From Schmidtea polychroa (Eukaryota), in the NCBI GenBank assembly GCA_044892525.1, contig CM097885.1, positions 14,138,001 through 14,202,000 on the forward strand: a DNA stretch of 64,000 nt, given 5' to 3'. Positions 16,875 through 60,585 of the stretch are shown here, piece by piece (position 1 is the first letter of the stretch; every line of letters starts with the position of its first letter). The position numbers and the translations under genes are program-made. The notes beneath the pieces are model-generated. The model saw only the letters and a program-made list of their open reading frames with translations, searched no databases and was not told the origin of the DNA.

Positions 16875-16914
16875 TTTAGGATCGGTCTGAATTTAGCCGG
16901 GTCATTTAAAATTT

Positions 16915-16940
16915 GTATTATTTATTATTATTATTTATTG

Positions 16941-16988
<48 letters not shown>
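16915..16988. repeat. (ATT)n microsatellite
   Basis: Direct reading. Confidence 0.9.
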
Positions 16989-17052: not shown

Positions 17053-17389
17053 TGGAAGTTTCAACTTTGAATCCTTTGTGGAATTTATTGAAAACAATCT
17101 GGTGCCTCATTTTAGAGCGTACCCGAATAAACTATTGATTATAGATAATGCAAAGTTCCATAAGTCGGTTAAAGTTCAGGATGTGCTTAGAAGAAATGGA
17201 ATCGTATGCAAGTTTGAAGAATTCTTCTCAATGATATAAAATAAATATCATGCAGTGAAAGTTCTAAATCCTAATTTATCAATCGCGCAATGTTTGGACA
17301 GTATTCTGGGGCCAAAAAATGAATATACCTCGCACTGTCAAGGTTTCTATAAAAACATGATGCGATGACTTGAAAAAGCACAGCAGAGA
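17053..17389 (+). pseudogene. Tc1/IS630-type (DDE_3) transposase fragment
   Basis: SFNFESFVEFIENNLVP..LLIIDNAKFHKS..V..L..EEFFSMI with the PYSP-LNPI segment missing; truncated by the retroelement. Confidence 0.75.
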
Positions 17390-17395
17390 GAGGAA

Positions 17396-20300
17396 ATGGA
17401 TAATAATAATGTGGAGATTAAAACTGAAGTTGTAGATGACCCAGGAGAAATTGATCAAGAAATTAATGAGTTGCAGAGATTAGAAACAATGGAAAATGAG
17501 GAAATGAGATCGGAAAATGAGGTTACAAGGGATATCGAGGAAATGAGCACCGATAATAGGATACTACCGAACATAGATGAGATGAAAAGCGAAGAGAACT
17601 TCGTTGAAACGAAAAATGACATTGCGATATGTCGGAAAAAACAGAATGATGCGGAAATTGAATCTTTGAGTTTAGATAAATCGAGCGAAACTGAGCGTTT
17701 AGATGAATCAAACGAGACTGAACGAATATTAAAAAGTTTAGTTACGGAATTGTACTTGTTAGATGAAACTGAAACAGAAGATGATACTTCGGAGGGGGAG
17801 GAAAGAGTTGTAAAAAGATTGGCAACGGAATTAAAGAGGAGATTACCGTCGATAATTAAAAGAAATTATGAAGAAAAGGAATTTTGTGAGGAAGCAGTGA
17901 TTGAGGACCTAACACGAACTGAGTTGGATCGAGATGTAATATTGACAGCGTTAGCTTATATAATATTGGAGATTGGTATTTATGGTTGTCTGGAAAATGA
18001 CAGTTCAAAATCATTGATAAAGAAAGCTACGGAAATGACGAATAAATATTTGGCTAGGTGGATCGCAAACAATGGCGGATGGGAAAATTTGATACAAAAG
18101 GCTGAGAGCCCAAAAACCGAGACAGTGAGGAAAAAGGGAAAACTCGCATTTCCATGGTTGATGATTTCTGTTATTATGTTATTGGGAATAATAAACACGA
18201 CGAATTCATTGGTGGCATACGACTGCTCCCAAACCGAAATGGGAAGAGTATATTCGTTGGTAAACGTAGCAGAGTGTTCGGATGCATATCCAGTAAAATT
18301 AAAAGTGACAAATCCAGTAAAATATTATGTATATCAAGAATCGGGATTTCGACGAGCAAAGGTGAGAGAGTGTACAGTGAAACGAACTACTTTTGTATTT
18401 TATTGTGGAAAATGGAGTCACTCATCGATGGTGAAAATGCAATCGATACCTAGACCGATAGAAATAATTCCAGAGAATTGTTTGGCAGCCTTTCAAACAG
18501 GACAGTTGAAAATCAATGCAGATATCAAACTACAAGCAAAGCTTAACCACAAAATCCGTGAGACTGTAACCGTGCGAGGGATAATAAAGTCGAATGGTGA
18601 TTGCCAAGGAGAGCCATACAAAGTAGACGATGCTATAATTGACAAAGCCGTGGTTGTGGAAGAGTACATGTCAGAATTAAGAGAATTTGATGGATCATTT
18701 GATGATGATACTGGTAAACTACAAACACATCCATTCTGCAACATGAAACAATCTAGCTGTCAGACAGGAGAATCAATCTTGGTGTACGATGTCGATACCA
18801 AAAAGTGCAATTTAGTGCAATTGAAGTCAATGAGTTTTAAAGAAATAACGGGAGAACAGATCAGGGAAAAGCCTGAGAAAATAAGAATGGATCCAGCAAC
18901 GAGTACAACAACGAGAATCACACCTCTACGGATGAAAGATACTCCAACAGTGTTAATGTCAACCTCGGAGGAAGATGGGATGCGATTCCTGAGAAAAGAA
19001 ACTAAAACAAAGTGTGGACAAAGTGTCTATGAGACAAATTATAAAGGTATATATGTATCTCAGAAGATGATTACAGAGGCCCAAACAAACATACATGCCG
19101 GAGATATTAAGTTGACAAATTACTTTAATAACAAAATAGATTATTTATTTCACTTTGGTCAAAATACTGTTGAAAATGTGTACCGAGAAGTTATTATAAA
19201 TGATTGCAATCTCAACAAAGAAATACTCCGAAATCGGATGGCAATGGCTATAACCAATCCTAATTTGGTAGCACCAATGTTAATTGCAGAAAATGGAGTG
19301 TTCGCCAGAATTTTCGGTGAAGCACTATATAGCTATAAATGTAAAGCGGTACCAGTTAAACTGACAAAGTATGACCAATGCACCAACGAGTTACCAGTGA
19401 ATTTAAATGGAAAGTTGCGATTTATGGAGCCTGTAACACGAATCTTACTGGAAGAGGACACGAAACCGAAAGTATTACAGTGCAATAGATTGTTAGCACC
19501 ATTATACAGACTAACACCAGAATCTTGGATTGCATTACCAGATCATCGAGAAGTAAAGACACCGGAAAACTTAGAATTGACAGAATTACAATATCTGGTA
19601 AATTTTACGTCGTTAGAAAAATTGTCGCAAAGTGGAATTTACTCGAACGAAGACATTGAGGAAGCTCGCAGAAACTTGTTATTTCCATCAAAGAAAGAAA
19701 GAGTAATAATGGAAATGGTAGATACAATTCTCCCAAGCGGAAGTGGGAAGGTAAATTATGAGTATTTATTAACTCCAGATCATTACAAGAAAGCGACGTA
19801 TAATACAATGAAAAAGATCTGGGGAAAGTTTATGTTCATTGGACAAGCGTGTGCCGGATTGATTGGAATTTATGTAATATGTGTTGTAATCAAAGTAATA
19901 ATATCGCAGGTCTTATCAACACACAGATTATACGCGATCACAGGTTGGTCGTGGAAACTAGTAATTGGTTGCATACCATTATTGGCTAGATTCTTCATTA
20001 CTCATCATCAATATCAGGAGTTGGAGATACTCAAGGCTCGAATATTAAAGAAGAAAAAGGTGAGCTACGCTAGTACTACCCCTTCAAGGGACGAGAACAA
20101 TGACAATGACAACGAGGGTGATAGTGCACCGTTATATGTTGACAATCAAGAACTAAGTGGAATGAATAAAGAAGCGTTAAGAACCTATCAAATCTTAAAA
20201 GAGCCACTGTTGAATGCGAGTAGCGTAGACACGTTTACAAAACTGTGTATACCAAAATCATTTATGCAACCAGCACCAGTGTATCCAGTTGATCGATTAC

Positions 20301-23300
20301 GAGAGATGAAACCAGTGGAAAATATCGCATTGCAATGTGAAGGAATGGTAGGAGAGAGAATTGAGCCTTCTAGCGCAGAGATCGAGAGAAAAAACATGTT
20401 AGGCTTACCATGCAACTACTCAATGATGACATTAACAAAAAGAGGAAAGCAACCCCGAATATTTATACAAATGAACAAACATAAAGTGGAAGCTTTAGTT
20501 GATTCGGGATCTAGTCACACAATAGTATCGGAAAATGTATTAAACGCGAAGGAAAAAAGGCGAATAAAGCCTACCGACGAAATAGTGAGGTCATTATCAA
20601 AAAATGAATTAAACATAATTGGACAACTTAACGTCATATTCCATATTGGAGATCGAATAATAGCGCACGATGCGCTCATAATGAAGGGAAGTCCAGTACG
20701 ATGTCTGATCGGCATGGATCTATTAGAGCAGCTGGACGGAGTCTCACTTGATTTAAAGACAGGTAATTTGATAGCAGGAGAAACAGGAGAAATAATTCAC
20801 AGGGCAGGTGAAGTGTTTGTGAATCAGACATTGACAATACCACCACAATCGGAGATGGTATATTGTGCAAATACCATGAGTGTGGATAATGGTGATTTTA
20901 TATTCGAACCAAATCAAACGCTAGTCGAAAAATATGATTTACCGATATGTGACGAAGTTGTCAAAGTGAAAAATCAGATAGTACCAGTCCATATAACGAA
21001 TAGCAGTAAGAAACCGGTTCAGCTACACCCAAAAACAAAATTGGGAAAATTATCAAAAATGTCTATTGAAACAAATTGCAAAATACCAAGAAACGTCAAA
21101 GTGTATAAGGAGCCTGAAGTGGTAAGCAATGATTTAAATGAGATGCAGAAAAAGGAATTTACAAAACTGTTGAGAAAATACCGAGATATCTTTGCTAAAC
21201 ACGAATATGATTTAGGTTTAACCAATGTAATTGAGCATGAAATACCGTTATTAGACGAAACTCCAATAAAAATAAAGCCATACAGAATCCCCTACGTTCA
21301 TCAAGACGAAAGCGATAGACAGATTACAGCAATGAAGGAATTTGGAATAATTCGAGATAGCGCGTCGCCATTCTCCTCATCAATAGTGATAGTTAAGAAA
21401 AAGGATGGAGACTTACGATTTTGCGTAGATTATCGGAAGCTAAATCAAGTTACGAGGAAAGACACTTATCCAATTCCAGTACCCCAAGAAATGTTTGATC
21501 AAATGGGAGAAGCACGATATTTCACTGTTATTGATTTAAACAAAGGGTACAATCAATTTAGAGTAAAAGAGGAAGATAGAGGAAAGACGGCGTTCTCGGA
21601 TGGCAAAGGACTGTATGAGTTCAACGTGTTACCATTTGGATTAACAGGAGCCCCAGCTACATTCCAACGAGGAATGAATTATGTGTTACGAGGAATTCGA
21701 CATGCATTGGTATATATCGACGATATAATAATATTTTCAAATGATTTTGAAGAACACCTGAAGGATGTAGAAACTGTATTTAAACGGCTCAAAAGTGCAA
21801 AATTAAAAATCAAACCATCGAAATGTGAATGGGGCAAAGCAGAAGTGATTTATGTAGGACATATAATATCACGGCGAGGGTTACAAACTAATCCAGATAA
21901 CATCAAAAAAGTGGAAGAGTACCCAGTACCAAAAGATGCCGATGAGGTTAGACAATTTTTAGGTTTGGCGAGCTATTACAGAAAATTTATAAAAGATTTC
22001 TCTCATATCGCACAACCATTGAATACGTTACTAAAGAAAAACAATAAATTTATTTGGGGACAAATGCAACAAAACGCTTTCAATACATTAAAAGAGAAAT
22101 TAGTAACAACTCCTATATTAAGATGTCCAGATTTTACAAAACAATTTATCTTGATGACGGATGCAAGCAACGTTGCATTGGGTGCGGTATTGGGACAAAA
22201 ATTTGAAGGTGAAAAGGACCATGTAATAGCATACGCAAGCAGATCATTGAGGCCTCACGAGAAAAACTACTCAACGATTGAAAAGGAAACGTTAGCGTTA
22301 GTGTATGGAATTACTACTTTTAGACAATATTTATTGGGCAGAAAATTTACTGTTTATACAGATCATAATCCATTACAGTGGTTAATGAAACACAGAGATT
22401 CAGCCAGTAAGTTAATACGATGGTCAATTGCCCTCCAAGAATACGACTTTGAGATTAAATACCGGACAGGTAAAGCTAACGCGAATGCAGATGCAATGTC
22501 GAGAATCCCAGAAAATAATAGTGAAGGGACACCTGAAAAAGTGGAAGGCACTATATTCGCAGCAATCAAAGCTGTTAATGATATGTCTGAACTTCAAAAT
22601 GATCAGGAAAACGATAGTGAATTAAAACAATTTATGGAACAAGCGGTCAAAATAAGAAAAGAACAAGACTGGAAACGACTTACAGATGCAAACAGCAAAT
22701 ATGTAATTCATAATGGAATACTTAAATGTTGGAAAAATGGGGAAGCATTAATTATTATACCAGCCAAGCACAGAGATGCATTACTGATGCAGTATCATGA
22801 TGGAGCGTTGGGAGGTCATTTGTCAACGCGCAAGACGCTATCAAGATTAAAATTGAAATACTTTTGGCCGACAATGGAACAAGACGTGAAAAATTGGTGT
22901 AACAGTTGCAAAGTATGCATCACCCGCAGAAATACTGGTAAAAAGATTAAAGTACCATTAAAACCGATGCCAGTACCTGCAGCACCAATGGAGATGACGG
23001 CAATGGATATTCTGGGACCATTACCGGAAACAACAAAAGGAAACAAATACATTGTTGTTTTTTGTGACTACTTTACCAAATGGCCAGAAGCATACGCTAT
23101 TCCAAACCAAAAAGCAGATACGATTGCTAGAATATTTGTGGAAAACATAATATTTCGCTATGGTACTCCAAAGAAATTGTTAACTGATCAAGGAAAGAAC
23201 TTTCAAAGCGAGATGTTTAAATCAATCACAGACTTATTTGGAATTTGGAAATTGAATACGTCACCATATCATCCACAAACTGATGGATTGGTGGAACGAT

Positions 23301-25054
23301 TTAATGGGACACTGATAAATATGATCTCATCATATGTGAATCGAAAACAGAAAGATTGGGACGACTTCATAAAGCCGTGTCTGTTTGCCTACAGAAATGC
23401 AGTAAATCAAAGTACAGGAGAGACCCCTTTTTACTTGATGTATTTAAGGAAAAATAATATGCCGATTGATCTCAAATTCCAACCACCAATTTCACAATAT
23501 ATGGAGATACCCGATTATAAAGCATTGATGCAAGAAAGAATGCAGTCAGTATGGACTAAAGCCGGTTTGACAATAAAGCACAACCAAGAGAAATATAAAG
23601 AATCATACGATAAAAAAGCACATGCGCATGGCATAAAGATTGGAGATCTAGTATATCTGAACAGACCGGAACCTCTCAAAGGTTTATCGCCTAAATTGCA
23701 AAGACCATTTAAAGGACCCTACAAAGTGTGCGACACCACCGAAACCAATTTGAAGTTATTACCATTCAGGAGTAAAAAAGCTAACCCGATGATTGTGCAT
23801 GCAAATCGATGTAAACTAGTGCCAGAGGAAGATGAATCTAGATACCCCTTAAGATCCAAGCAGAATAAAGTAACGGGTCAAACAAAATTGAAACAGAAAT
23901 TCACGAAAAATCCAACACCAGTCAGCTACATCAATAAGATATTATATGTAGCAATAATGCTGATGTTAGTAACAGTTGCGAGCGGCAAAAAGATTGATTT
24001 ACCATATGCGGTAAACAAAATCCGAGGAATGGAGAAAATACATATATATTCCACTCTAACAAATATAGTATGGAGCTGTAAATGCGAGATCGCAGACCAA
24101 ATAGAAATTATTAATTTACTAGACAATACGGCACCAGTGGTAGAACTGAATTATGATAAAGATATAGTTGCGGTACGAAAGTTAAAGCCAAATTACAAAT
24201 ACCAATGGCTGTTGAGACAGAACATGTCAATGTGGTACACGCAAATTCCGATAGAAGTGCACACAAAAGAGATGCGAAACTTGATCGAGATAGAACCAGA
24301 GATAAACGGAATCAATATATATTGGAAGCCAGTGGACTTGGTGAAAGTGCGAATCACATTTCAAGGGTTAAATGTCGACACCCTTAACTCGCGAAAATCA
24401 TTTATCCGCTACGAGAAATTGAAAATGAATCAAAATTATTCAGTTAATGCGAACTACTACGAGAACATATGCCTCGAAAATGGAACGGTAGTGAGAAACC
24501 AATGGTCACGATTTAAGAGTGAGACCCAGTCTATCTATCTCAGAGACGAGTCAAATCGTATAACCCTGAGTGTTGGAAATGGACCGGTAACGATATATAG
24601 AAAATCAGGAAATGATGAAAGAGTTGTTATTATCTACAAACAAAAAACCCTGACTATATTAGATGCCGGTAATCATTTTTTTACACTTTACACTTCTGAT
24701 TTAGAGACGGCATGGGAATTAACAGTTAAATATCAGCGATGGATAACCGATCCAGGCAGATGGCAAACAGTTTTCGTGGAAGTCAAGACAATCAATGAAT
24801 CGAAACGAAAATCATATACAACCACATCACCTCTCCAATTACCGACCCAAGAGACGACAAAACCTAACTCAAACAAACTAATGATGATAAATTCGGATTT
24901 GACAGTCAACTATTGTGAATATCTCATTTACATTTTAATAACAGGTTTTCTCATCTTATCAATAACATTCATAATCATCACCATCTTGATATGTGTAAAA
25001 GAGAGACAACTAACTATCCTTCAACCACCATCATATTATGAGACAAGACTGTAA
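17396..25054 (+). CDS. Uninterrupted 2552-aa polyprotein remnant: Bcl-2-like, SP plus chuvirus-like glycoprotein plus TM, protease, RT, RNase H, integrase, SP plus ectodomain plus TM
   Basis: WIANNGGWENL; WLMISVIMLLGII..LVAYDCS; LVDSGS; LPFGL..YIDD; TDAS..EKETLA..YTDH..ADAMSR; HHCC; MDILGP..TDQG..VERFN; FKGPY; ILYVAIMLMLVTVASG; C-terminal YLIYILITGFLILSITFIIITILICV. Confidence 0.93.
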   Translation: MDNNNVEIKTEVVDDPGEIDQEINELQRLETMENEEMRSENEVTRDIEEMSTDNRILPNIDEMKSEENFVETKNDIAICRKKQNDAEIESLSLDKSSETERLDESNETERILKSLVTELYLLDETETEDDTSEGEERVVKRLATELKRRLPSIIKRNYEEKEFCEEAVIEDLTRTELDRDVILTALAYIILEIGIYGCLENDSSKSLIKKATEMTNKYLARWIANNGGWENLIQKAESPKTETVRKKGKLAFPWLMISVIMLLGIINTTNSLVAYDCSQTEMGRVYSLVNVAECSDAYPVKLKVTNPVKYYVYQESGFRRAKVRECTVKRTTFVFYCGKWSHSSMVKMQSIPRPIEIIPENCLAAFQTGQLKINADIKLQAKLNHKIRETVTVRGIIKSNGDCQGEPYKVDDAIIDKAVVVEEYMSELREFDGSFDDDTGKLQTHPFCNMKQSSCQTGESILVYDVDTKKCNLVQLKSMSFKEITGEQIREKPEKIRMDPATSTTTRITPLRMKDTPTVLMSTSEEDGMRFLRKETKTKCGQSVYETNYKGIYVSQKMITEAQTNIHAGDIKLTNYFNNKIDYLFHFGQNTVENVYREVIINDCNLNKEILRNRMAMAITNPNLVAPMLIAENGVFARIFGEALYSYKCKAVPVKLTKYDQCTNELPVNLNGKLRFMEPVTRILLEEDTKPKVLQCNRLLAPLYRLTPESWIALPDHREVKTPENLELTELQYLVNFTSLEKLSQSGIYSNEDIEEARRNLLFPSKKERVIMEMVDTILPSGSGKVNYEYLLTPDHYKKATYNTMKKIWGKFMFIGQACAGLIGIYVICVVIKVIISQVLSTHRLYAITGWSWKLVIGCIPLLARFFITHHQYQELEILKARILKKKKVSYASTTPSRDENNDNDNEGDSAPLYVDNQELSGMNKEALRTYQILKEPLLNASSVDTFTKLCIPKSFMQPAPVYPVDRLREMKPVENIALQCEGMVGERIEPSSAEIERKNMLGLPCNYSMMTLTKRGKQPRIFIQMNKHKVEALVDSGSSHTIVSENVLNAKEKRRIKPTDEIVRSLSKNELNIIGQLNVIFHIGDRIIAHDALIMKGSPVRCLIGMDLLEQLDGVSLDLKTGNLIAGETGEIIHRAGEVFVNQTLTIPPQSEMVYCANTMSVDNGDFIFEPNQTLVEKYDLPICDEVVKVKNQIVPVHITNSSKKPVQLHPKTKLGKLSKMSIETNCKIPRNVKVYKEPEVVSNDLNEMQKKEFTKLLRKYRDIFAKHEYDLGLTNVIEHEIPLLDETPIKIKPYRIPYVHQDESDRQITAMKEFGIIRDSASPFSSSIVIVKKKDGDLRFCVDYRKLNQVTRKDTYPIPVPQEMFDQMGEARYFTVIDLNKGYNQFRVKEEDRGKTAFSDGKGLYEFNVLPFGLTGAPATFQRGMNYVLRGIRHALVYIDDIIIFSNDFEEHLKDVETVFKRLKSAKLKIKPSKCEWGKAEVIYVGHIISRRGLQTNPDNIKKVEEYPVPKDADEVRQFLGLASYYRKFIKDFSHIAQPLNTLLKKNNKFIWGQMQQNAFNTLKEKLVTTPILRCPDFTKQFILMTDASNVALGAVLGQKFEGEKDHVIAYASRSLRPHEKNYSTIEKETLALVYGITTFRQYLLGRKFTVYTDHNPLQWLMKHRDSASKLIRWSIALQEYDFEIKYRTGKANANADAMSRIPENNSEGTPEKVEGTIFAAIKAVNDMSELQNDQENDSELKQFMEQAVKIRKEQDWKRLTDANSKYVIHNGILKCWKNGEALIIIPAKHRDALLMQYHDGALGGHLSTRKTLSRLKLKYFWPTMEQDVKNWCNSCKVCITRRNTGKKIKVPLKPMPVPAAPMEMTAMDILGPLPETTKGNKYIVVFCDYFTKWPEAYAIPNQKADTIARIFVENIIFRYGTPKKLLTDQGKNFQSEMFKSITDLFGIWKLNTSPYHPQTDGLVERFNGTLINMISSYVNRKQKDWDDFIKPCLFAYRNAVNQSTGETPFYLMYLRKNNMPIDLKFQPPISQYMEIPDYKALMQERMQSVWTKAGLTIKHNQEKYKESYDKKAHAHGIKIGDLVYLNRPEPLKGLSPKLQRPFKGPYKVCDTTETNLKLLPFRSKKANPMIVHANRCKLVPEEDESRYPLRSKQNKVTGQTKLKQKFTKNPTPVSYINKILYVAIMLMLVTVASGKKIDLPYAVNKIRGMEKIHIYSTLTNIVWSCKCEIADQIEIINLLDNTAPVVELNYDKDIVAVRKLKPNYKYQWLLRQNMSMWYTQIPIEVHTKEMRNLIEIEPEINGINIYWKPVDLVKVRITFQGLNVDTLNSRKSFIRYEKLKMNQNYSVNANYYENICLENGTVVRNQWSRFKSETQSIYLRDESNRITLSVGNGPVTIYRKSGNDERVVIIYKQKTLTILDAGNHFFTLYTSDLETAWELTVKYQRWITDPGRWQTVFVEVKTINESKRKSYTTTSPLQLPTQETTKPNSNKLMMINSDLTVNYCEYLIYILITGFLILSITFIIITILICVKERQLTILQPPSYYETRL

Positions 25055-25229: not shown

Positions 25230-25475
25230 ATGCAAGAAGCCTCGGAGATGACATGCAAAGAGTGTAAAACAAGTACGCAAGAACTAAAACAAAAGTTTCG
25301 TAGCATGCAGGGCAGAATAACAGATTTGGAGGAAGAAAACTTCCGTCTGAAAAGGCGGTTGGACCGTTTGGAAATCTTATTGTTTCAACACGAAGCCGAT
25401 TTCGCGATGTTTCGAATGAGAGTAGAAGAAATGGAGGAATCGGAAGATGATGGTGAGATAAATCAATTAGACTAA
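25230..25475 (+). CDS. Small accessory ORF (81 aa): CxxC, leucine-zipper-like coil, acidic tail
   Basis: CKEC then heptads ITDLEEENFRLKRRLDRLE; ATG 4 nt after a splice acceptor (TTTAATTTCAG, 25226); GC-richer than flanks. Confidence 0.6.
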   Translation: MQEASEMTCKECKTSTQELKQKFRSMQGRITDLEEENFRLKRRLDRLEILLFQHEADFAMFRMRVEEMEESEDDGEINQLD

Positions 25476-25554
25476 AAAAATAAATTATTTAAACGGAGGA
25501 ATCGGAAGATGATGGTGAGATAAATCAATTAGACTAAAAAAATAAATTATTTAA

Positions 25555-25770
25555 ACGGCATGGGAATTAACAGTTAAATATCAGCGATGGATAACCGATC
25601 CAGGCAGATGGCAAACAGTTTTCGTGGAAGTCAAGACAATCAATGAATCGAAACGAAAATCATATACAACCACATCACCTCTCCAATTACCGACCCAAGA
25701 GACGACAAAACCTAACTCAAACAAACTAATGATGATAAATTCGGATTTGACAGTCAACTATTGTGAATAT
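25555..25770 (+). repeat. 216-bp direct repeat of 24707-24922, preceded by a 62-bp tandem duplication (25433-25558)
   Basis: Direct sequence identity; ACGG at the junctions. Confidence 0.93.
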
Positions 25771-26200
25771 ATTTTTTTCGTCCTCGAGAGAAAAAAAAAT
25801 AATAGTTAAATAATTATAAGTAAATTAACAAATAATCAAATGAATAAACAAATTGATATAAATAAATAAGTAAAAAAGTGATAAATTAAATGAATGAATA
25901 ATAGATAAAAATGAACAAAGTTAAACGAGCAAATAGAATAACTCAAATAAATGTTGCAAATAATGAAATGACTACCTTAAATGAGCATTAGAAATAAATA
26001 ATATGACTGATTAGTAATTAATGAATTAGCATAGCTATATAGCAATGGGTAACCCACTGGGCGAGAGGACAAAATTATAAACAAGTAAGGAATAATTTCA
26101 CATTAGTAGTAACAAAGACTAATCGCGAAGAGGGACACAATTACCCCACCCTTTCTAGCATAATTAAAAACAAAGGTATGCTGAACATTTATTCAAAGTT

Positions 26201-26502
26201 TTATTCGTCATCAGAGTCCAACAGAACGGGACTTTGGATGCCACAATCCCATTCCCTGCGTACATTGCAAGGCGGGCGTCTTTCAAACCTACTGCCTGTA
26301 TCCACACAGGCAAAGGTACGTTTCAATCCCTTTCGACGCGGTGGTAAAGGGACCCTGAAAAAGAAATTAAAAACCTGTTAGATGGCAGTTAAATAACCAT
26401 TGCATAACATCGAGATGTTCAAACTTAGGTTCTGGCACAGCCTAAAATAGTAAGGGTTGAAAAGAAAAAATGAAATAAATACTATGTAAAACTCCGTACC
26501 AT
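26201..26502 (-). CDS. Predicted 3-exon antisense gene, 66 aa (exons 26502-26500, 26441-26398, 26354-26201)
   Basis: GCCATG, then GTACGG..TTTTAG intron (58 nt), then GTTATT..CTAAC..TTTCAG intron (43 nt); spliced frame MAVPEPKFEHLDVMQWVPLPPRRKGLKRTFACVDTGSRFERRPPCNVRREWDCGIQSPVLLDSDDE*; AATAAA at and after the stop. Confidence 0.6.
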
Positions 26503-29500: not shown

Positions 29501-30001
29501 ATGTTAAACAAAACATTATTAAAAGATAATCTTACAGTGTTATCATTGTAATAAGTATCTGGTGAAATTTGATATATATTTTTTTTGATATATAATTTTA
29601 AATTAAAAATAATGGCGATTTCAACACTGCCTAAATATATTTAAGTTATTATTACCGTTAGGGGGTTTCAATAGGCCAAGATTTCATTTAAATTCAATTA
29701 AATCGTTTGATCAATAATTAATAAAAACCACGACCAATTTCATCAAAAAAAAAGGGGGGTTTCAATAGGCCAAGATTTCATTTAAATTCAATTAAATCGT
29801 TTGATCAATAATTAATAAAAACCACGACCAATTTCATCATTTCTCATATTTTTGGGTTATTATTAATGAAATATCAAGGTTTTTATATCTTTCGACATTG
29901 GCGAAAACAATTGCTCATTGTAACATTATTTATGTATACTTGGTTAAAATTCAACAAAACTTTCCATTAAAACACAAATTTCGAGGACGAAAAGATTTTT
30001 T

Positions 30002-30012
30002 AAGGGGGGAGA
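30002..30012 (+). promoter_or_regulatory. Polypurine tract of copy 1
   Basis: AAGGGGGGAGA 2 nt upstream of the LTR start. Confidence 0.9.
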
Positions 30013-30014
30013 TA

Positions 30015-31055
30015 TGTTGAGGTCCGTAAATTAAAATTGAAAATTTAAATAAAATTTAGAATAATAATTCAAATGGAAAGTAAGCGAGGAAAAAAGGCAA
30101 ATAAAAGCGGGATCGTGCACAGAATCAATAGTAAAGGAAAGTGCGATGGAAACAGTATTAGAAAATGCAAAAAGCAATTACGAAAGGCGAGAATCCGGAA
30201 ATCCGAGAAAAATCAATAAATGGAAAAATCATCGAAATCGAATGGGAAAAACGGGACAGGTATAGATTAGCTAATGGTCAACAAGATGATGGTCAGGGAT
30301 TTATCAGAAAAGGGTTAGGAAGGGTCGAAAAACATTCAAACGTATGAAAACAGAAAACGTTAATTAATTAATTAATTGGCTAATGGAAAACCCGAGCCAA
30401 TGGAGAACCCGAGAGATAAAGGAAACCCGAGCTGGGTAAACAAGAAGAAAGGCAAACAAAAGGAAGATTTGGGCCCATTAGCTTGACACAATGATTAATG
30501 GGAAAAGAGTAAGGAGAAGATAGCGCGCGTAGGAAGACCGGTAGGGCCATTAATTATCTGGATTCGTTGGACCATTATGGATGACAGCCGAAGCAAACAC
30601 GTAGGAGAAAATGTCAAACGAAAGATTGGCTCGGCAATAACCATTTGTCATCCTGATTTCGAGGAGTATATAAGCAAAGGGAAAATCAGAGAAAATCGGC
30701 ATTTTGCCTCAGGTAGGTTAAGAAGAATTAGACTGTAGGAAAAGTGGTAAACGAATTAGGGAAGTAGGGAAAAGAAGAAATAGAATTAAGAATACGGAAA
30801 GGCGAAAAGGGATCAAACCAAAGAGAAACCGAGGAAAAAGAGAGTCGAGATAACTAAAGGATCAAAAGGTGAATATTGTTTGTTTGCAAAGCATCAACGC
30901 CGAGCGGAGAATCGTATAAAACTTTGATTGGTAATTGTAACGTGATAATAAATTGTGAACTTGTTGTTTCAATATACGTTGGGTCGTTCATTGTTTTACT
31001 TTAAAGAACACCAGGAGTCAGAGAGAACCGACTTGAAATAATCCAAAACCCAACA
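30015..31055 (+). repeat. Shared LTR (1041 bp): 3' LTR of copy 1 and 5' LTR of copy 2
   Basis: TGTTG..CAACA; preceded by PPT and followed by PBS; TATATAA 30667, candidate donor CAG|GTAGGT at 30713, AATAAA 30947. Confidence 0.96.
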
Positions 31056-31062: not shown

Positions 31063-31081
31063 TGGTGAGCCCGACGTGATT
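31063..31081 (+). promoter_or_regulatory. Primer-binding site, tRNA-Trp
   Basis: TGGTGAGCCCGACGTGATT, one mismatch from the canonical tRNA-Trp PBS TGGTGACCCCGACGTGAT; 7 nt after the LTR end. Confidence 0.88.
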
Positions 31082-31303
31082 GAAAGTCGGCGGAAAATTA
31101 TTGAAAGTTAGTGGAAAAATTAATTGTTGGAAAAAATAGTACCGACGTGATTGAAAGTCGGCGGAAAATTATTGAAAGTTAGTGGAAAAATTAATTGTTG
31201 GAAAAAATAGTACCGACGTGATTGAAAGTCGGAGGGAAATTATTGAAAGCTAGTGAAAAAGGAATTATAAAAAGAATTAGTACTGACGTGAGTGAAAGTC
31301 GGC
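31071..31303 (+). repeat. ~71-bp tandem repeat in the 5' leader (3 full units plus 1 partial)
   Basis: Units start at 31071, 31142, 31213 and 31283 with C(C/T)GACGTGA(T/G)TGAAAGTCGG. Confidence 0.9.
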
Positions 31304-31455
31304 TTAGAAGTTTGAAAATAGTGTTAACGAGATTATAAAAGGCTATTATTGGGAGATTTAAAAGAAGTTGAAAAGTAATTTTAAATTATTGTTTAACGTT
31401 TGAAGTTTAGCTCAAAGTGAACCGATACAACCTCAGAAGTCAGAAACAAGTCCAA

Positions 31456-34400
31456 ATGGCAAATGATAATGCTGTTATGCCTCTCAATAGAGAGATGATT
31501 GACTTCGCAAGTTGCCAGAAATTACCCGTCAATCAATATGGAGGAGACCCTGTTGAATTTGCAGATTTCATGGGAGATTATTATATGTACGCCTCAGCAT
31601 ACGGATGGACACAAGCCATTATGGTTCAGAGATTCCCACTCTATCTGAAGGGTGCGGCAAGAGAAGCCTGGCAGCAAGTCGACAAACGAAATGTTGGCAA
31701 TGATTGGACAAAATTGAAGGATGCAATGGCACTGAAACTGGTTGGTGGAGATATCAAAAGAATCATGCGACAGAAATTTTATAATCGAGTTCAAGGTCCA
31801 GATGAATCGGTCAGTGAGTTTGCTTATCATCTGACCACTTTAGCAGATAAAGCCTTTGAAGTTAAACCAGACCAAGCAGAAATGGCCAAGCAGGTTAAAG
31901 AGCTATTAGAAGATCAGTTTATAACCGGAGTCCACTCCGAAATCAAAAAAGCCCTATGTTATGTGGATTTTTCCAATTTTGATGAGCTCGTGAAGAAAGC
32001 CATGAAGATAGAGCTGAATTTAAAAAGTGCAAAAAGATCAGATGCTTTTGGAGTTAATGTGGAGAGACGTGAGCGATCAATTACGCCTGTGAGAGCACCA
32101 TGGGATGAAAAGAAAATAAATCAAATCAGTAGTCCAATTTTGAGACCAAATAATAGATTTCAAGCCAGTAGATCAGCCATGAACGTACAATCAAATGGAC
32201 AGGTAAATAATCCTCAATGCGAACATTGCAAAAAGTCTGGACACTACTCAAATCAATGTTGGTTCAAATATGGGAGAAATCCCAGCCCTAACAAGAGATT
32301 TACAGAAAACAAACGGATCAGCAGTGATGTCGAATGCTATCGATGCGGAAAGAAAGGGCATATTAGCAGAAACTGTTTTACCAGATCAAGGTCATCGTCA
32401 ACGTCACCTTCACCACAAAGGGACAAAGTGAATACAAATGGACAGATCCAATGTCATTCGTGCAAGGGATACGGCCACATGGCTCGATCATGCCCAAGGA
32501 ACTCAGAAAGATTCAACAGACCTATCTTAAAGAAATCAATCAGATTCCAAGAAGATATGCCAAACACTAGTAATATGACATATGCTCAGAGAGAAGAATT
32601 TCAAGACAAAATGGAAAAGGAATTTCGAGAAATGCGACAGAAGCTGAACAAACTAGTGGCGAAATTTGAATCAGATGAGGAAACTGAATCTCATATGATA
32701 ATGGGAACCGTGTCAGAAGGTGAGGGAAAACCTGCCACGAAAGTGCGAAAGATCGCATCAGATGAGAATCCGACTACACTGTTAGCACGAGTCGAAAAAT
32801 GGCTTGAGAAAATGGAAACTGACAACTCCCAGTTGAAACGATGGATCGCAGAACTCAGTGTGATGTCACTAACCCAAAGCGAACTAAAGAGAGCCATAAA
32901 TTTATGTGCAAAGTTATTCAAAGGAAACAGAGACGATGAGATACGTAAACAAATGCAAAAGTTTGGCAAGGCTTTACGGTCAACAAGGGATTTAGCTGAT
33001 ATCATAGTGGAAACGACGGGACTTGATAATGTGAAGTGCCAATTCCGTGTAAATGCCTACGGACAAATCAGAGAGCTAAAGGAGCGAATACTGCGTCAAT
33101 ACAGTGGATGGCAAGTGCAATTAAAATATGAGAATCGATGTCTGGAAGACGAAGAGTACTTAGTAGATTGCGGTCTGATACCAGGCTGGAAAAATAAAGT
33201 AAATGTTATTAATGCTGTTAATACTTTGAATTCAGACAGACAAAATTGGGAAAAGATTCTAGCAGATTTACAAGATACCCTGTATGCAGGGAATAGAGAT
33301 AAAATTAATGCGAGTATCGACTTCATAATGAGCATCGAAATGGATCGAGACATGAAAGAAGGGTTGTTTGAATGCATCGTACCGTATACGAATAAACCGA
33401 CGAGTTATCAGGCAAAACTAAAAGAGGTAATCCGAAAACTAGGACATGATTATGAGGCGGCAGACGATAGTGCGAAGTCTTTGATAATAGCGTTAAATAT
33501 TGCGGATCAAAGGATTGAATATTATCAGGAACATTGGAGTGTAAAAGCAAAGAAAATACGACAAAAAGCAGCGGAGATATTAGGTAATGAAGGAATTATC
33601 GTGTTGACGTTCAAAGGACGAGAATTGGATGATGACGAATATTTATTAAACTACGGATGTAACCCAAATTGTATTAATAATGTGTACGCAACAAAACAAA
33701 GTGATGAAATGGAAAGAGATGCGGTAATAGTACCGTTTTGGCCTCTATATGAGGAAATGGATAATAATAATGTGGAGATTAAAACTGAAGTTGTAGATGA
33801 CCCAGGAGAAATTGATCAAGAAATTAATGAGTTGCAGAGATTAGAAACAATGGAAAATGAGGAAATGAGATCGGAAAATGAGGTTACAAGGGATATCGAG
33901 GAAATGAGCACCGATAATAGGATACTACCGAACATAGATGAGATGAAAAGCGAAGAGAACTTCGTTGAAACGAAAAATGACATTGCGATATGTCGGAAAA
34001 AACAGAATGATGCGGAAATTGAATCTTTGAGTTTAGATAAATCGAGCGAAACTGAGCGTTTAGATGAATCAAACGAGACTGAACGAATATTAAAAAGTTT
34101 AGTTACGGAATTGTACTTGTTAGATGAAACTGAAACAGAAGATGATACTTCGGAGGGGGAGGAAAGAGTTGTAAAAAGATTGGCAACGGAATTAAAGAGG
34201 AGATTACCGTCGATAATTAAAAGAAATTATGAAGAAAAGGAATTTTGTGAGGAAGCAGTGATTGAGGACCTAACACGAACTGAGTTGGATCGAGATGTAA
34301 TATTGACAGCGTTAGCTTATATAATATTGGAGATTGGTATTTATGGTTGTCTGGAAAATGACAGTTCAAAATCATTGATAAAGAAAGCTACGGAAATGAC

Positions 34401-37400: not shown

Positions 37401-40400
37401 ATTGGGAAAATTATCAAAAATGTCTATTGAAACAAATTGCAAAATACCAAGAAACGTCAAAGTGTATAAGGAGCCTGAAGTGGTAAGCAATGATTTAAAT
37501 GAGATGCAGAAAAAGGAATTTACAAAACTGTTGAGAAAATACCGAGATATCTTTGCTAAACACGAATATGATTTAGGTTTAACCAATGTAATTGAGCATG
37601 AAATACCGTTATTAGACGAAACTCCAATAAAAATAAAGCCATACAGAATCCCCTACGTTCATCAAGACGAAAGCGATAGACAGATTACAGCAATGAAGGA
37701 ATTTGGAATAATTCGAGATAGCGCGTCGCCATTCTCCTCATCAATAGTGATAGTTAAGAAAAAGGATGGAGACTTACGATTTTGCGTAGATTATCGGAAG
37801 CTAAATCAAGTTACGAGGAAAGACACTTATCCAATTCCAGTACCCCAAGAAATGTTTGATCAAATGGGAGAAGCACGATATTTCACTGTTATTGATTTAA
37901 ACAAAGGGTACAATCAATTTAGAGTAAAAGAGGAAGATAGAGGAAAGACGGCGTTCTCGGATGGCAAAGGACTGTATGAGTTCAATGTGTTACCATTTGG
38001 ATTAACAGGAGCCCCAGCTACATTCCAACGAGGAATGAATTATGTGTTACGAGGAATTCGACATGCATTGGTATATATCGACGATATAATAATATTTTCA
38101 AATGATTTTGAAGAACACCTGAAGGATGTAGAAACTGTATTTAAACGGCTCAAAAGTGCAAAATTAAAAATCAAACCATCGAAATGTGAATGGGGCAAAG
38201 CAGAAGTGATTTATGTAGGACATATAATATCACGGCGAGGGTTACAAACTAATCCAGATAACATCAAAAAAGTGGAAGAGTACCCAGTACCAAAAGATGC
38301 CGATGAGGTTAGACAATTTTTAGGTTTGGCGAGCTATTACAGAAAATTTATAAAAGATTTCTCTCATATCGCACAACCATTGAATACGTTACTAAAGAAA
38401 AACAATAAATTTATTTGGGGACAAATGCAACAAAACGCTTTCAATACATTAAAAGAGAAATTAGTAACAACTCCTATATTAAGATGTCCAGATTTTACAA
38501 AACAATTTATCTTGATGACGGATGCAAGCAACGTTGCATTGGGTGCGGTATTGGGACAAAAATTTGAAGGTGAAAAGGACCATGTAATAGCATACGCAAG
38601 CAGATCATTGAGGCCTCACGAGAAAAACTACTCAACGATTGAAAAGGAAACGTTAGCGTTAGTGTATGGAATTACTACTTTTAGACAATATTTATTGGGC
38701 AGAAAATTTACTGTTTATACAGATCATAATCCATTACAGTGGTTAATGAAACACAGAGATTCAGCCAGTAAGTTAATACGATGGTCAATTGCCCTCCAAG
38801 AATACGACTTTGAGATTAAATACCGGACAGGTAAAGCTAACGCGAATGCAGATGCAATGTCGAGAATCCCAGAAAATAATAGTGAAGGGACACCTGAAAA
38901 AGTGGAAGGCACTAGATTCGCAGCAATCAAAGCTGTTAATGATATGTCTGAACTTCAAAATGATCAGGAAAACGATAGTGAATTAAAACAATTTATGGAA
39001 CAAGCGGTCAAAATAAGAAAAGAACAAGACTGGAAATGACTTACAGATGCAAACAGCAAATATGTAATTCATAATGGAATACTTAAATGTTGGAAAAATG
39101 GGGAAGCATTAATTATTATACCAGCCAAGCACAGAGATGCATTACTGATGCAGTATCATGATGGAGCGTTGGGAGGTCATTTGTCAACGCGCAAGACGCT
39201 ATCAAGATTAAAATTGAAATACTTTTGGCCGACAATGGAACAAGACGTGAAAAATTGGTGTAACAGTTGCAAAGTATGCATCACCCGCAGAAATACTGGT
39301 AAAAAGATTAAAGTACCATTAAAACCGATGCCAGTACCTGCAGCACCAATGGAGATGACGGCAATGGATATTCTGGGACCATTACCGGAAACAACAAAAG
39401 GAAACAAATACATTGTTGTTTTTTGTGACTACTTTACCAAATGGCCAGAAGCATACGCTATTCCAAACCAAAAAGCAGATACGATTGCTAGAATATTTGT
39501 GGAAAACATAATATTTCGCTATGGTACTCCAAAGAAATTGTTAACTGATCAAGGAAAGAACTTTCAAAGCGAGATGTTTAAATCAATCACAGACTTATTT
39601 GGAATTTGGAAATTGAATACGTCACCATATCATCCACAAACTGATGGATTGGTGGAACGATTTAATGGGACACTGATAAATATGATCTCATCATATGTGA
39701 ATCGAAAACAGAAAGATTGGGACGACTTCATAAAGCCGTGTCTGTTTGCCTACAGAAATGCAGTAAATCAAAGTACAGGAGAGACCCCTTTTTACTTGAT
39801 GTATTTAAGGAAAAATAATATGCCGATTGATCTCAAATTCCAACCACCAATTTCGCAATATATGGAGATACCCGATTATAAAGCATTGATGCAAGAAAGA
39901 ATGCAGTCAGTATGGACTAAATCCGGTTTGACAATAAAGCACAACCAAGAGAAATATAAAGAATCATACGATAAAAAAGCACATGCGCATGGCATAAAGA
40001 TTGGAGATCTAGTATATCTGAACAGACCGGAACCTCTCAAAGGTTTATCGCCTAAATTGCAAAGACCATTTAAAGGACCCTACAAAGTGTGCGACACCAC
40101 CGAAACCAATTTGAAGTTATTACCATTCAGGAGTAAAAAAGCTAACCCGATGATTGTGCATGCAAATCGATGTAAACTAGTGCCAGAGGAAGATGAATCT
40201 AGATACCCCTTAAGATCCAAGCAGAATAAAGTAACGGGTCAAACAAAATTGAAACAGAAATTCACGAAAAATCCAACACCAGTCAGCTACATCAATAAGA
40301 TATTATATGTAGCAATAATGCTGATGTTAGTAACAGTTGCGAGCGGCAAAAAGATTGATTTACCATATGCGGTAAACAAAATCCGAGGAATGGAGAAAAT

Positions 40401-41322
40401 ACATATATATTCCACTCTAACAAATATAGTATGGAGCTGTAAATGCGAGATCGCAGACCAAATAGAAATTATTAATTTACTAGACAATACGGCACCAGTG
40501 GTAGAACTGAATTATGATAAAGATATAGTTGCGGTACGAAAGTTAAAGCCAAATTACAAATACCAATGGCTGTTGAGACAGAACATGTCAATGTGGTACA
40601 CGCAAATTCCGATAGAAGTGCACACAAAAGAGATGCGAAACTTGATCGAGATAGAACCAGAGATAAACGGAATCAATATATATTGGAAGCCAGTGGACTT
40701 GGTGAAAGTGCGAATCACATTTCAAGGGTTAAATGTCGACACCCTTAACTCGCGAAAATCATTTATCCGCTACGAGAAATTGAAAATGAATCAAAATTAT
40801 TCAGTTAATGCGAACTACTACGAGAACATATGCCTCGAAAATGGAACGGTAGTGAGAAACCAATGGTCACGATTTAAGAGTGAGACCCAGTCTATCTATC
40901 TCAGAGACGAGTCAAATCGTATAACCCTGAGTGTTGGAAATGGACCGGTAACGATATATAGAAAATCAGGAAATGATGAAAGAGTTGTTATTATCTACAA
41001 ACAAAAAACCCTGACTATATTAGATGCCGGTAATCATTTTTTTACACTTTACACTTCTGATTTAGAGACGGCATGGGAATTAACAGTTAAATATCAGCGA
41101 TGGATAACCGATCCAGGCAGATGGCAAACAGTTTTCGTGGAAGTCAAGACAATCAATGAATCGAAACGAAAATCATATACAACCACATCACCTCTCCAAT
41201 TACCGACCCAAGAGACGACAAAACCTAACTCAAACAAACTAATGATGATAAATTCGGATTTGACAGTCAACTATTGTGAATATATTTTTTTCGTCCTCGA
41301 GAGAAAAAAAAATAATAGTTAA
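31456..41322 (+). pseudogene. Gag-Ubl-Ubl-Bcl2-like-Env-Pol polyprotein broken by CGA>TGA at 39037-39039 and lacking the final TM
   Basis: ORFs 31417..39039 and 39148..41322 are in one frame; Gag motifs FPLYLKGAAREAW, QGPDESVSEF, DQFITGV; three CX2CX4HX4C knuckles at 32218-32493; copy 1 has CGA at the stop position. Confidence 0.93.
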
Positions 41323-45000: not shown

Positions 45001-47018
45001 CATTTAAAGGACCCTACAAAGTGTGCGACACCACCGAAACCAATTTGAAGTTATTACCATTCAGGAGTAAAAAAGCTAACCCGATGATTGTGCATGCAAA
45101 TCGATGTAAACTAGTGCCAGAGGAAGATGAATCTAGATACCCCTTAAGATCCAAGCAGAATAAAGTAACGGGTCAAACAAAATTGAAACAGAAATTCACG
45201 AAAAATCCAACACCAGTCAGCTACATCAATAAGATATTATATGTAGCAATAATGCTGATGTTAGTAACAGTTGCGAGCGGCAAAAAGATTGATTTACCAT
45301 ATGCGGTAAACAAAATCCGAGGAATGGAGAAAATACATATATATTCCACTCTAACAAATATAGTATGGAGCTGTAAATGCGAGATCGCAGACCAAATAGA
45401 AATTATTAATTTACTAGACAATACGGCACCAGTGGTAGAACTGAATTATGATAAAGATATAGTTGCGGTACGAAAGTTAAAGCCAAATTACAAATACCAA
45501 TGGCTGTTGAGACAGAACATGTCAATGTGGTACACGCAAATTCCGATAGAAGTGCACACAAAAGAGATGCGAAACTTGATCGAGATAGAACCAGAGATAA
45601 ACGGAATCAATATATATTGGAAGCCAGTGGACTTGGTGAAAGTGCGAATCACATTTCAAGGGTTAAATGTCGACACCCTTAACTCGCGAAAATCATTTAT
45701 CCGCTACGAGAAATTGAAAATGAATCAAAATTATTCAGTTAATGCGAACTACTACGAGAACATATGCCTCGAAAATGGAACGGTAGTGAGAAACCAATGG
45801 TCACGATTTAAGAGTGAGACCCAGTCTATCTATCTCAGAGACGAGTCAAATCGTATAACCCTGAGTGTTGGAAATGGACCGGTAACGATATATAGAAAAT
45901 CAGGAAATGATGAAAGAGTTGTTATTATCTACAAACAAAAAACCCTGACTATATTAGATGCCGGTAATCATTTTTTTACACTTTACACTTCTGATTTAGA
46001 GACGGCATGGGAATTAACAGTTAAATATCAGCGATGGATAACCGATCCAGGCAGATGGCAAACAGTTTTCGTGGAAGTCAAGACAATCAATGAATCGAAA
46101 CGAAAATCATATACAACCACATCACCTCTCCAATTACCGACCCAAGAGACGACAAAACCTAACTCAAACAAACTAATGATGATAAATTCGGATTTGACAG
46201 TCAACTATTGTGAATATATTTTTTTCGTCCTCGAGAGAAAAAAAAATAATAGTTAAATAATTATAAGTAAATTAACAAATAATCAAATGAATAAACAAAT
46301 TGATATAAATAAATAAGTAAAAAAGTGATAAATTAAATGAATGAATAATAGATAAAAATGAACAAAGTTAAACGAGCAAATAGAATAACTCAAATAAATG
46401 TTGCAAATAATGAAATGACTACCTTAAATGAGCATTAGAAATAAATAATATGACTGATTAGTAATTAATGAATTAGCATAGCTATATAGCAATGGGTAAC
46501 CCACTGGGCGAGAGGACAAAATTATAAACAAGTAAGGAATAATTTCACATTAGTAGTAACAAAGACTAATCGCGAAGAGGGACACAATTACCCCACCCTT
46601 TCTAGCATAATTAAAAACAAAGGTATGCTGAACATTTATTCAAAGTTTTATTCGTCATCAGAGTCCAACAGAACGGGACTTTGGATGCCACAATCCCATT
46701 CCCTGCGTACATTGCAAGGCGGGCGTCTTTCAAACCTACTGCCTGTATCCACACAGGCAAAGGTACGTTTCAATCCCTTTCGACGCGGTGGTAAAGGGAC
46801 CCTGAAAAAGAAATTAAAAACCTGTTAGATGGCAGTTAAATAACCATTGCATAACATCGAGATGTTCAAACTTAGGTTCTGGCACAGCCTAAAATAGTAA
46901 GGGTTGAAAAGAAAAAATGAAATAAATACTATGTAAAACTCCGTACCATGGCGCCCTCGACAAATAATTAGTGCAGGGAAGTAATTGATTTTAAGAATTA
47001 CGTAATAAATTAATAAGT
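42086..47018 (+). repeat. Tandem duplicate of 37152-42084 (RT-RH-IN-ectodomain and start of 3' region)
   Basis: Constant offset 4934; same TGA (43971-43973) and same private variants; junction AATAAGT-T-AATAATTCAC. Confidence 0.95.
46648..46949 (-). CDS. Third copy of the predicted 66-aa spliced antisense gene
   Basis: Same sequence as 26201-26502 (offset 20447). Confidence 0.55.
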
Positions 47019-50353: not shown

Positions 50354-50364
50354 AAGGGGGGAGA
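50354..50364 (+). promoter_or_regulatory. Polypurine tract of copy 2
   Basis: AAGGGGGGAGA just upstream of the 3' LTR. Confidence 0.9.
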
Positions 50365-50366
50365 TA

Positions 50367-51407
50367 TGTTGAGGTCCGTAAATTAAAATTGAAAATTTAA
50401 ATAAAATTTAGAATAATAATTCAAATGGAAAGTAAGCGAGGAAAAAAGGCAAATAAAAGCGGGATCGTGCACAGAATCAATAGTAAAGGAAAGTGCGATG
50501 GAAACAGTATTAGAAAATGCAAAAAGCAATTACGAAAGGCGAGAATCCGGAAATCCGAGAAAAATCAATAAATGGAAAAATCATCGAAATCGAATGGGAA
50601 AAACGGGACAGGTATAGATTAGCTAATGGTCAACAAGATGATGGTCAGGGATTTATCAGAAAAGGGTTAGGAAGGGTCGAAAAACATTCAAACGTATGAA
50701 AACAGAAAACGTTAATTAATTAATTAATTGGCTAATGGAAAACCCGAGCCAATGGAGAACCCGAGAGATAAAGGAAACCCGAGCTGGGTAAACAAGAAGA
50801 AAGGCAAACAAAAGGAAGATTTGGGCCCATTAGCTTGACACAATGATTAATGGGAAAAGAGTAAGGAGAAGATAGCGCGCGTAGGAAGACCGGTAGGGCC
50901 ATTAATTATCTGGATTCGTTGGACCATTATGGATGACAGCCGAAGCAAACACGTAGGAGAAAATGTCAAACGAAAGATTGGCTCGGCAATAACCATTTGT
51001 CATCCTGATTTCGAGGAGTATATAAGCAAAGGGAAAATCAGAGAAAATCGGCATTTTGCCTCAGGTAGGTTAAGAAGAATTAGACTGTAGGAAAAGTGGT
51101 AAACGAATTAGGGAAGTAGGGAAAAGAAGAAATAGAATTAAGAATACGGAAAGGCGAAAAGGGATCAAACCAAAGAGAAACCGAGGAAAAAGAGAGTCGA
51201 GATAACTAAAGGATCAAAAGGTGAATATTGTTTGTTTGCAAAGCATCAACGCCGAGCGGAGAATCGTATAAAACTTTGATTGGTAATTGTAGCGTGATAA
51301 TAAATTGTGAACTTGTTGTTTCAATATACGTTGGGTCGTTCATTGTTTTACTTTAAAGAACACCAGGAGTCAGAGAGAACCGACTTGAAATAATCCAAAA
51401 CCCAACA
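50367..51407 (+). repeat. 3' LTR of copy 2 (1041 bp)
   Basis: Matches 30015-31055 except GTAACG vs GTAGCG; no PBS follows. Confidence 0.96.
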
Positions 51408-60545: not shown

Positions 60546-60585
60546 TTTAGGATCGGTCTGAATTTAGCCGGGTCATTTAAAATTT

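Follow-up and report, generated by a model that had tools for sequence, protein, structure and literature searches.

A 64,000-nucleotide stretch of the Schmidtea polychroa genome (GenBank assembly GCA_044892525.1, contig CM097885.1, positions 14,138,001 to 14,202,000; hereafter the window) contains a Ty3/gypsy-type long terminal repeat (LTR) retroelement whose polyprotein continues in frame beyond the integrase. This extension is very probably a real membrane protein of the fibronectin type III (FN3) kind that is maintained by selection. The same polyprotein includes a class III-type fusion glycoprotein (PF24664), and the proposal of a first-pass annotation of the window, that the element encodes two surface proteins, is borne out by the presence of this fusogen together with a second unit of signal, FN3 repeats and transmembrane (TM) helix. 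We put the probability that the second protein acts as an attachment or adhesion partner of the fusogen at about 0.5, a role that we infer from sequence and models.

Architecture of the post-integrase extension

The extension forms the last 373 codons of a single open reading frame (ORF) of 2561 codons at 17369-25054, on the plus strand, as are the coding parts, repeats, extension copies and LTRs of the element given below. This ORF encodes, in order, a Bcl-2-like domain, a signal, the fusogen, protease (PR), reverse transcriptase (RT), RNase H (RH), integrase (IN) and the second membrane protein. As had been annotated, the latter is a predicted type-I membrane protein following the integrase in frame, and every motif originally named lies in the frame of this ORF. 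From the GPY motif onward, none of the 446 codons is a stop, compared with 20-51 stops in each of the five other frames, and the open frame is therefore not a product of chance. The junction between integrase and signal is crossed without gaps by contigs of four other runs (X1, X13, X5 and X20); run X15 yielded zero contigs, which we do not read as absence.

A basic linker starting with RYPLR (23834..23935) follows the integrase and is a likely site for its release by cleavage; the pattern RY(P/N)xR is kept in P0003, P0004 and P0005, three relatives described below. Next comes a second internal signal-like segment (23936..23986; hydropathy KD19 1.88, KD11 3.0), with a predicted cut between ASG and KK at 23986/23987. 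The corresponding slot of the relatives ends in SQA or VCG. Signals were assessed from their hydropathy and position and from the (-3,-1) pattern. The signal had been described as coming after GPY; it is indeed present (ILYVAIML at 23939), but it does not adjoin that motif, lying 75 codons after it. The ectodomain then consists of three repeats (23987..24262, 24263..24526 and 24527..24796) and a Ser/Thr/Pro-rich stalk (about 24797-24919), which is found at low identity in the relatives too. A 26-amino-acid (aa) TM helix (24920..24997; KD19 2.8), which has a counterpart in the same position in P0002, P0003 and P0005, leads into a cytoplasmic tail of 18 aa that ends PPSYYETRL.

Most details of the earlier description could be placed directly. 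The FN3-like motifs LKPNYKY (24182), INIYWKP (24311) and LKMNQNYSV (24419), the sequons NMS (24221), NYS (24434) and NGT (24479), the Thr/Pro stalk and the 26-aa TM helix are all there, and a further sequon, NES (24794), had not been named. The β-rich region is present as well, although its size of ~290 aa needs adjustment, as it measures 311 aa with the stalk and about 270 aa without it. By hydropathy and the (-3,-1) pattern, the extension fits a type-I membrane glycoprotein with a predicted cleavable signal and a single C-terminal TM helix. The TM call is strong in copy A, as we term the copy of the element that bears this ORF, and the signal segment is weak in P0003 and P0005.

Fold of the ectodomain

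Profile comparison with hhalign resolves three tandem repeats of ~90 aa each, with values of 90% between repeats 1 and 2 (E 2e-6), 56% between repeats 2 and 3, and 24% between repeats 1 and 3. Structural modelling was carried out using AlphaFold with five aligned sequences, and a single-sequence model (predicted local distance difference test, pLDDT, of 32) was left unused. The best model has a mean pLDDT of 71.6 (other models 38-55), reaching about 80 in repeats 1 and 2 and 40-70 in repeat 3. A Foldseek search of the PDB returned FN3 tandems in its top rows, among them fibronectin, LAR, Tie2 and CD45, with a best E-value of 7e-8, and a second, independent aligner gave a Z-score of 9.8 for a two-domain fibronectin fragment. 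Repeat 1 has FN3 fold matches, and repeat 2 superimposes onto fibronectin (PDB code 6mfa) with a Z-score of 9.4 and a root-mean-square deviation of 2.1 Å over 78 residues. The model supports a seven-stranded FN3 β-sandwich of about 90 aa for repeats 1 and 2, while repeat 3 is probably FN3-like, with weak signals throughout. The FN3 character assigned in the first-pass annotation thus stands for the first two repeats and is weak for the third.

Fold-match identities range only from 4 to 16%, and for this reason the donor gene cannot be named. Pfam fn3 does not match the copy A protein and reaches E-values of 0.2-0.7 in the relatives, and the extension as query had no match in Pfam or among PDB sequences. 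A language-model atlas offered FNDC5-like assignments at 0.88 and 0.90, which serve as a lead only. A viral fold library contained only phage and giant-virus FN3 proteins as matches, with nothing specific. A homodimer prediction for repeats 1-2, in which the alignment was unused, scored 0.00 and is evidence for neither side.

Relatives and conservation

With the extension alone as query, phmmer found P0002 as the sole match among 1.84 billion representatives (E 7e-10, 21% identity), and word-based homolog searches with the same segment retrieved none of 1247 candidates of 205-653 aa and none of 1593 candidates of 1408-4482 aa. A search with integrase plus extension gave 814 matches, of which 120 were listed; three of these 120, P0003, P0004 and P0005, carry a homologous in-frame extension (E 1.7e-17 to 8.5e-9). 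The extension runs through TM helix and tail in P0003 and P0005 and stops within repeat 2 in P0004, and P0002 nearly duplicates the end of P0005. The conservation across family members that the annotation had called for is thus found in these proteins. Their DNA context was sought in viral contigs and metagenome contigs, and none was found there. P0004 (MGL4337186.1) is labelled as a protein of a Turicibacter metagenome-assembled genome and is likely animal DNA inside a bacterial bin.

Integrase identity between copy A and P0003, P0004 and P0005 is 68-72%, compared with 15-42%, mostly 17-33%, for the repeats. The repeats therefore diverge while the architecture stays, as would be expected of a binding protein. 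A quick integrase tree covered 45 rows (copy A, P0003-P0044, P0052 and P0067, with 76 of the 120 listed matches excluded), and in it the three proteins group with copy A and P0011 (SH-aLRT support 95); the ORF of P0011 terminates inside the integrase. P0006, from the sister group, has a different unit behind its integrase, laid out as protease-like domain(s), signal, a different 374-aa ectodomain, TM helix and a tail ending TTAV. This ectodomain was considered as an FN3 homolog and rejected, as BLASTP gave an E-value of 0.72 and its scores were matched by 7, 63 and 5 of 200 shuffles. In P0006, P0008 and P0009, the integrase is directly followed by one or two additional domains resembling aspartyl proteases.

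Among near-identical copies, the 21 variants listed in the extension comprise 10 silent and 11 replacing changes and no stops, where 21-28% would be expected to be silent (excess of silent changes, p 0.007-0.04). These variants were drawn from 18 of 20 rows and from 8 of 40 listed rows (of 208), 5 being shared. Within the bounds of this selected table, the extension appears to be under modest purifying selection.

The window holds two further copies of the extension, at 40294..41322 (copy B) and 45228..46256 (copy C), which are identical to copy A up to the equivalent of 24922 and then end. They lack the segment between 224-bp direct repeats and would yield an ectodomain without TM helix and tail; both also have a stop in pol, at 39037-39039 in copy B and at 43971-43973 in copy C. 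The second 224-bp repeat of copy A (25549..25770, a second copy of 24699-24922) is skipped in three other runs and is thus local to copy A. The TM-less form as the family norm was rejected, since the TM segment is present in three runs and is skipped in none of 15 joints listed (of 27). Given that contigs of runs X1, X9 and X13 keep the TM segment and that three runs skip the second repeat, the form with a TM helix seems to be that of the family, and the form without it to stem from a local deletion.

The cytoplasmic tail

The motif PPSY, a PPxY sequence reported in the tail by the first-pass annotation and linked there to WW domains of the Nedd4 family, is present at 25025..25036. It is kept only in near-identical copies, however, and is absent from the four complete tails of relatives (P0002, P0003, P0005 and P0006). 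What is shared lies at the very end. All complete tails terminate in S/T-x-V/L, with ETRL in copy A (25040..25051, the last four residues before the ORF end), STLV in P0002, P0003 and P0005, and TTAV in P0006, whose two full-length cluster members, P0123 and P0126, likewise end in T-A-V. These tails represent three lineages and not seven independent cases. An S/T-x-V/L end occurs in one of the 117 other listed matches, and composition predicts 2.7%. At the last codon, only silent differences are seen in the four runs compared. Class I PDZ ligands are defined by S/T-x-hydrophobic at a free C-terminus (PMC4810129), and Env of HTLV-1, a leukaemia virus of human T cells, binds DLG1 at virological synapses through such a motif (PMC4810129). 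As judged from sequence, the conserved feature of the tail is a predicted class I PDZ-binding motif, not PPxY. Taken as a whole, the interpretation in the annotation is partly supported, in that two surface proteins and conservation across family members are upheld and a role for PPxY is not.

Proposed role and alternative explanations

The ORF has five strong hydrophobic peaks, corresponding to a core helix of the Bcl-2-like domain, the first internal signal-like segment ahead of the fusogen (18143..18208; KD19 1.99), the fusogen TM helix (19847-19903; KD19 2.64), the second signal and the final TM helix. In the topology that we propose, the Gag part would be cytosolic, the fusogen luminal, PR-RT-RH-IN cytosolic, the FN3 repeats luminal and the tail again cytosolic. 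The first signal would direct the fusogen into the endoplasmic reticulum, the fusogen TM helix would bring PR-RT-RH-IN back to the cytosol, and the second signal would direct the FN3 repeats into the lumen. Signal peptidase could then cleave after ASG and release the ectodomain, and the element protease or signal peptide peptidase could free the integrase by cleavage within the basic linker. In a similar manner, the capsids of flaviviruses and hepaciviruses are released from the following signal. The protein would be glycosylated and would arrive at the surface in a 1:1 ratio to fusogen and Pol. There, the PDZ-binding tail may retain it at junctions or polarised contacts, and the fast-changing FN3 repeats may bind a neighbouring cell or matrix, bringing particles or the producing cell near enough for the fusogen to act.

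A number of points weigh against this role as attachment partner. An FN3 fold alone indicates no function, as FN3 receptors also signal or serve as decoys, and repeat 3 is poorly modelled and barely covered in the fold search. The signals of P0003 and P0005 are only mildly hydrophobic, with no KD13 peak above 1.7, and have 1 of 17 residues in common with that of copy A. A second, mildly hydrophobic stretch follows the fusogen TM helix (KD19 1.38), and the topology model can hold only if this stretch does not span the membrane. The homolog set amounts to four proteins from three lineages on short contigs. No such protein was present in the sister ORFs examined, P0007, P0008, P0009, P0010 and P0012, and the wider clade may be able to do without a post-integrase protein. 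Run X20 is recorded as RNA, although a single contig at depth 4 does not demonstrate transcription.

It seems rather unlikely to us that the protein stays on the producing cell as a host-cell modulator, whether it imitates an FN3-type receptor, acts as a decoy of one, or disrupts junctions or polarity by way of its PDZ-binding tail. The top fold matches do include CD45, LAR, Tie2, IL-22R1 and interferon receptors, yet no match rises above the general FN3 background (Z-scores of 9.8 to 7.9 over 50 rows). The element family bears host-regulatory cargo in its polyprotein, namely Bcl-2-like and ubiquitin-like domains (PMC6431247), and viral class I PDZ motifs often disrupt polarity proteins (PMC4810129). 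Rapid divergence would also be compatible with an arms race against a ligand of the host. On the other hand, the tail of 18 aa carries no signalling domain, and one-to-one translation with fusogen and Pol would suit a structural role. An account centred on the tail, in which PPxY would bring in a Nedd4-family ligase together with ESCRT (endosomal sorting complexes required for transport) for budding or assembly, the protein would tether Pol to the membrane and the ectodomain would be secondary, appears improbable. PPSY outlasts a 6-base in-frame insertion found in all four runs compared, and an in-frame signal anchor would keep the integrase at the membrane until cleavage; the absence of PPxY from the tails of all four relatives noted above, and three repeats whose fold-defining residues are preserved over large distances, beyond what a tether would need, speak against it.

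We find it similarly improbable that the membrane protein arises for the most part separately, through splicing or an RNA with an internal start, like a classical gene in the env position, and that its in-frame link to the integrase is incidental. In-frame ATGs exist at 23789, 23957 and 23963, P0002 was predicted as a separate protein of 410 aa starting at a Met just before the signal, and env forms its own ORF in other gypsy elements (PMC6431247). However, the four long relatives and the runs examined all have an open frame over the junction, a simple pattern search revealed no acceptor-like site in 23601-24000, and conservation does not extend to the Met before the signal; the P0002 start may also reflect the choice of the gene caller, and no contig of P0002 was found. 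A captured host gene fragment carried without function, finally, is very improbable and largely refuted by conservation. Elements readily acquire cargo (PMC6431247), and two of the three copies in the window lack TM helix and tail, but both of these also have the pol stop and stem from one local rearrangement. Relatives with about 20% identity moreover retain the full architecture, and silent changes are in excess.

Returning to the attachment partner, we tentatively extend it to a two-glycoprotein entry system in a flatworm retroelement clade, a proposal that in its entirety is more apt to fail than to hold. It would combine a captured FN3 adhesin, its clustering at junctions through the PDZ-binding tail, the class III fusogen and an exchangeable attachment cassette in the post-integrase position. 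By analogy with herpesviruses, labour might be split such that the adhesin picks the target cell and the fusogen fuses, and both might be made in equal amounts from one polyprotein crossing the membrane four times. The cassette is suggested by the sequence of P0006, where the slot appears to hold another ectodomain in the same frame of signal, TM helix and PDZ motif. If this were true, elements could move from differentiated cells into stem cells over synapse-like contacts, and the conserved PDZ-binding tail would offer a direct handle on the site of their cell-to-cell transfer. Entry of gB-type errantiviruses has been stated to be unexplained, since herpesvirus gB requires partner glycoproteins (PMC13524379), and the FN3 protein is a concrete candidate partner for a gB-type fusogen. 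A fusogen before pol and a host-type surface protein after the integrase would also blur the line between LTR retrotransposons and complex enveloped viruses. Schmidtea mediterranea, a standard regeneration model, provides RNA interference and known de-repression of transposons (PMC8532177).

The element and neighbouring features

Copy A lacks its 5′ end, being truncated at about 17390. The remainder of its ORF comprises a weak Bcl-2-like match (17894..18082; PF00452, E 0.068, below the curated cut-off), the class III-type fusion glycoprotein, whose best Pfam stretch lies at 18917..20095 (PF24664, E 4.4e-94), protease, reverse transcriptase and RNase H (20465..22444; Pfam), and an integrase with H2C2, core and GPY/C-terminal parts (22757..23833; Pfam), its GPY motif being located at 23714. 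In copy B, a Gag bearing three CCHC knuckles, together with a ubiquitin-like domain (31411..33750; Pfam, the latter with E 6e-5, below the curated cut-off), sits upstream of env in the same frame. The LTR of 1041 bp, bounded by TG...CA (30015..31055), serves both as the 3′ LTR of copy A and as the 5′ LTR of copy B, giving a tandem layout at 30015-51407 with one LTR common to neighbouring copies. Copies B and C form one unit, copy C being its 4934-bp internal duplicate, and this unit ends in a near-identical 3′ LTR (50367..51407). From LTR to LTR it spans 21.4 kb (30015-51407), the duplicate included. A polypurine tract precedes each LTR, the first at 30002-30012.

A primer-binding-site candidate at 31063-31080, 7 bases after the LTR, resembles what we take to be a tRNA-Trp site; similar words repeat at 31144-31300. 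The motif RY(N/P)LR occurs at 31423-31437, upstream of the first gag Met, as well as at 23840-23854 after the integrase, and presumably recalls the chromatin-binding motif of foamy viruses. Directly after the polyprotein, an 81-aa ORF (25230-25475, plus strand) that has CxxC and is predicted to form a coiled coil lies behind an acceptor-like tttcag; it is gap-free in run X13, has only weak coiled-coil Pfam matches and is possibly a small accessory gene. Some 4.2 kb separate the ORF from the 3′ LTR (25771-30014), and this region is repeated at 46218-50366. A few splice-like sites on its minus strand (26354-27389) suggest an antisense multi-exon transcript, with donor counts not above those of the plus strand. 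Outside the element, a 4.4-kb stretch is present twice (12597-16987 and 56316-60661; 97-99% identity), representing a segmental duplication or another repeat. A DDE_1 endonuclease ORF (11019-11516, E 4e-33) and 863-bp inverted repeats (354-1216 and 5674-6536) mark DNA transposons unrelated to the extension.

Comparison with known systems

The closest described element is Smed_errantivirus_2 of Schmidtea mediterranea, a Ty3/gypsy element of the GAG-ENV-POL HSV/gB type (herpes simplex virus gB), tabulated with 215 copies in that species by Chary and Hayashi (PMC13524379). By eye, 248 of 251 residues of the env segment are identical (3 differences), a comparison confined to this 251-aa segment, whereas the >98% nucleotide criterion covers three ORFs. 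The match speaks for a planarian host and against a nematode one with a NERV-like element. Both are LTR elements with the order Gag-Env-Pol, and the element studied here displays the features of that errantivirus type, with the order PR-RT-RH-IN, a gB/chuvirus-type env between gag and pol, and LTRs. Smed_errantivirus_2 is annotated with GAG, ENV, POL and chromodomains only, and the accessible text of PMC13524379 does not describe a post-integrase membrane protein.

Similarities are also found to the giant planarian gypsy elements Burro and GYPSM1 (Arkhipova and Yushenova, PMC6431247), which share a Gag with three CCHC motifs, ubiquitin/SUMO-like and Bcl-2-like domains and a mononegavirus-like env before the protease; here too, a 3-CCHC Gag, ubiquitin-like and Bcl-2-like domains and an env in frame before the protease are present. 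Those elements exceed 30 kb, in contrast to the 21.4 kb from LTR to LTR and the LTR of 1041 bp in the window. Their MATH, BIR and ankyrin cargo has no Pfam match here at E-values up to 1, no profile-profile search having been made. The accessible parts of the review name no post-integrase membrane or FN3 protein. Neither PMC13524379 nor PMC6431247 has the word "fibronectin" in its main text, and "fibronectin" and "FN3" are absent from seven supplements of PMC13524379, where long cells were cut and the figures and sequence archive fell outside the search. Across the literature searched, which did not extend to Grohme 2018, Sacco 2022 or the Repbase entries, we found no description of a post-integrase membrane protein.

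Other systems resemble the second membrane protein in part. Cellular FN3 type-I membrane proteins such as FNDC4/5, CD45, LAR, Tie2 and class II cytokine receptors share with it signal, FN3 tandem, stalk, TM helix and short tail, but differ at 4-16% sequence identity. The sORF2 of MDG1-group elements is a non-Env membrane protein tied to cell-to-cell spread, although it is a tiny fusogen that replaces Env (PMC11952523). The FN2 domains of the planarian nidovirus PSCNV are matrix-type modules within a single viral polyprotein, but have an unrelated fold and belong to an RNA virus (PMC6211748). HTLV-1 Env is likewise a surface protein placed at cell contacts by a C-terminal S/T-x-hydrophobic motif (PMC4810129); in that case the class I fusogen itself bears the motif, whereas here a separate FN3 protein does, a functional analogy without homology. 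The element, its Gag-Env-Pol order and its Bcl-2-like and ubiquitin-like cargo are already in print, and the second membrane protein is absent from the texts searched.

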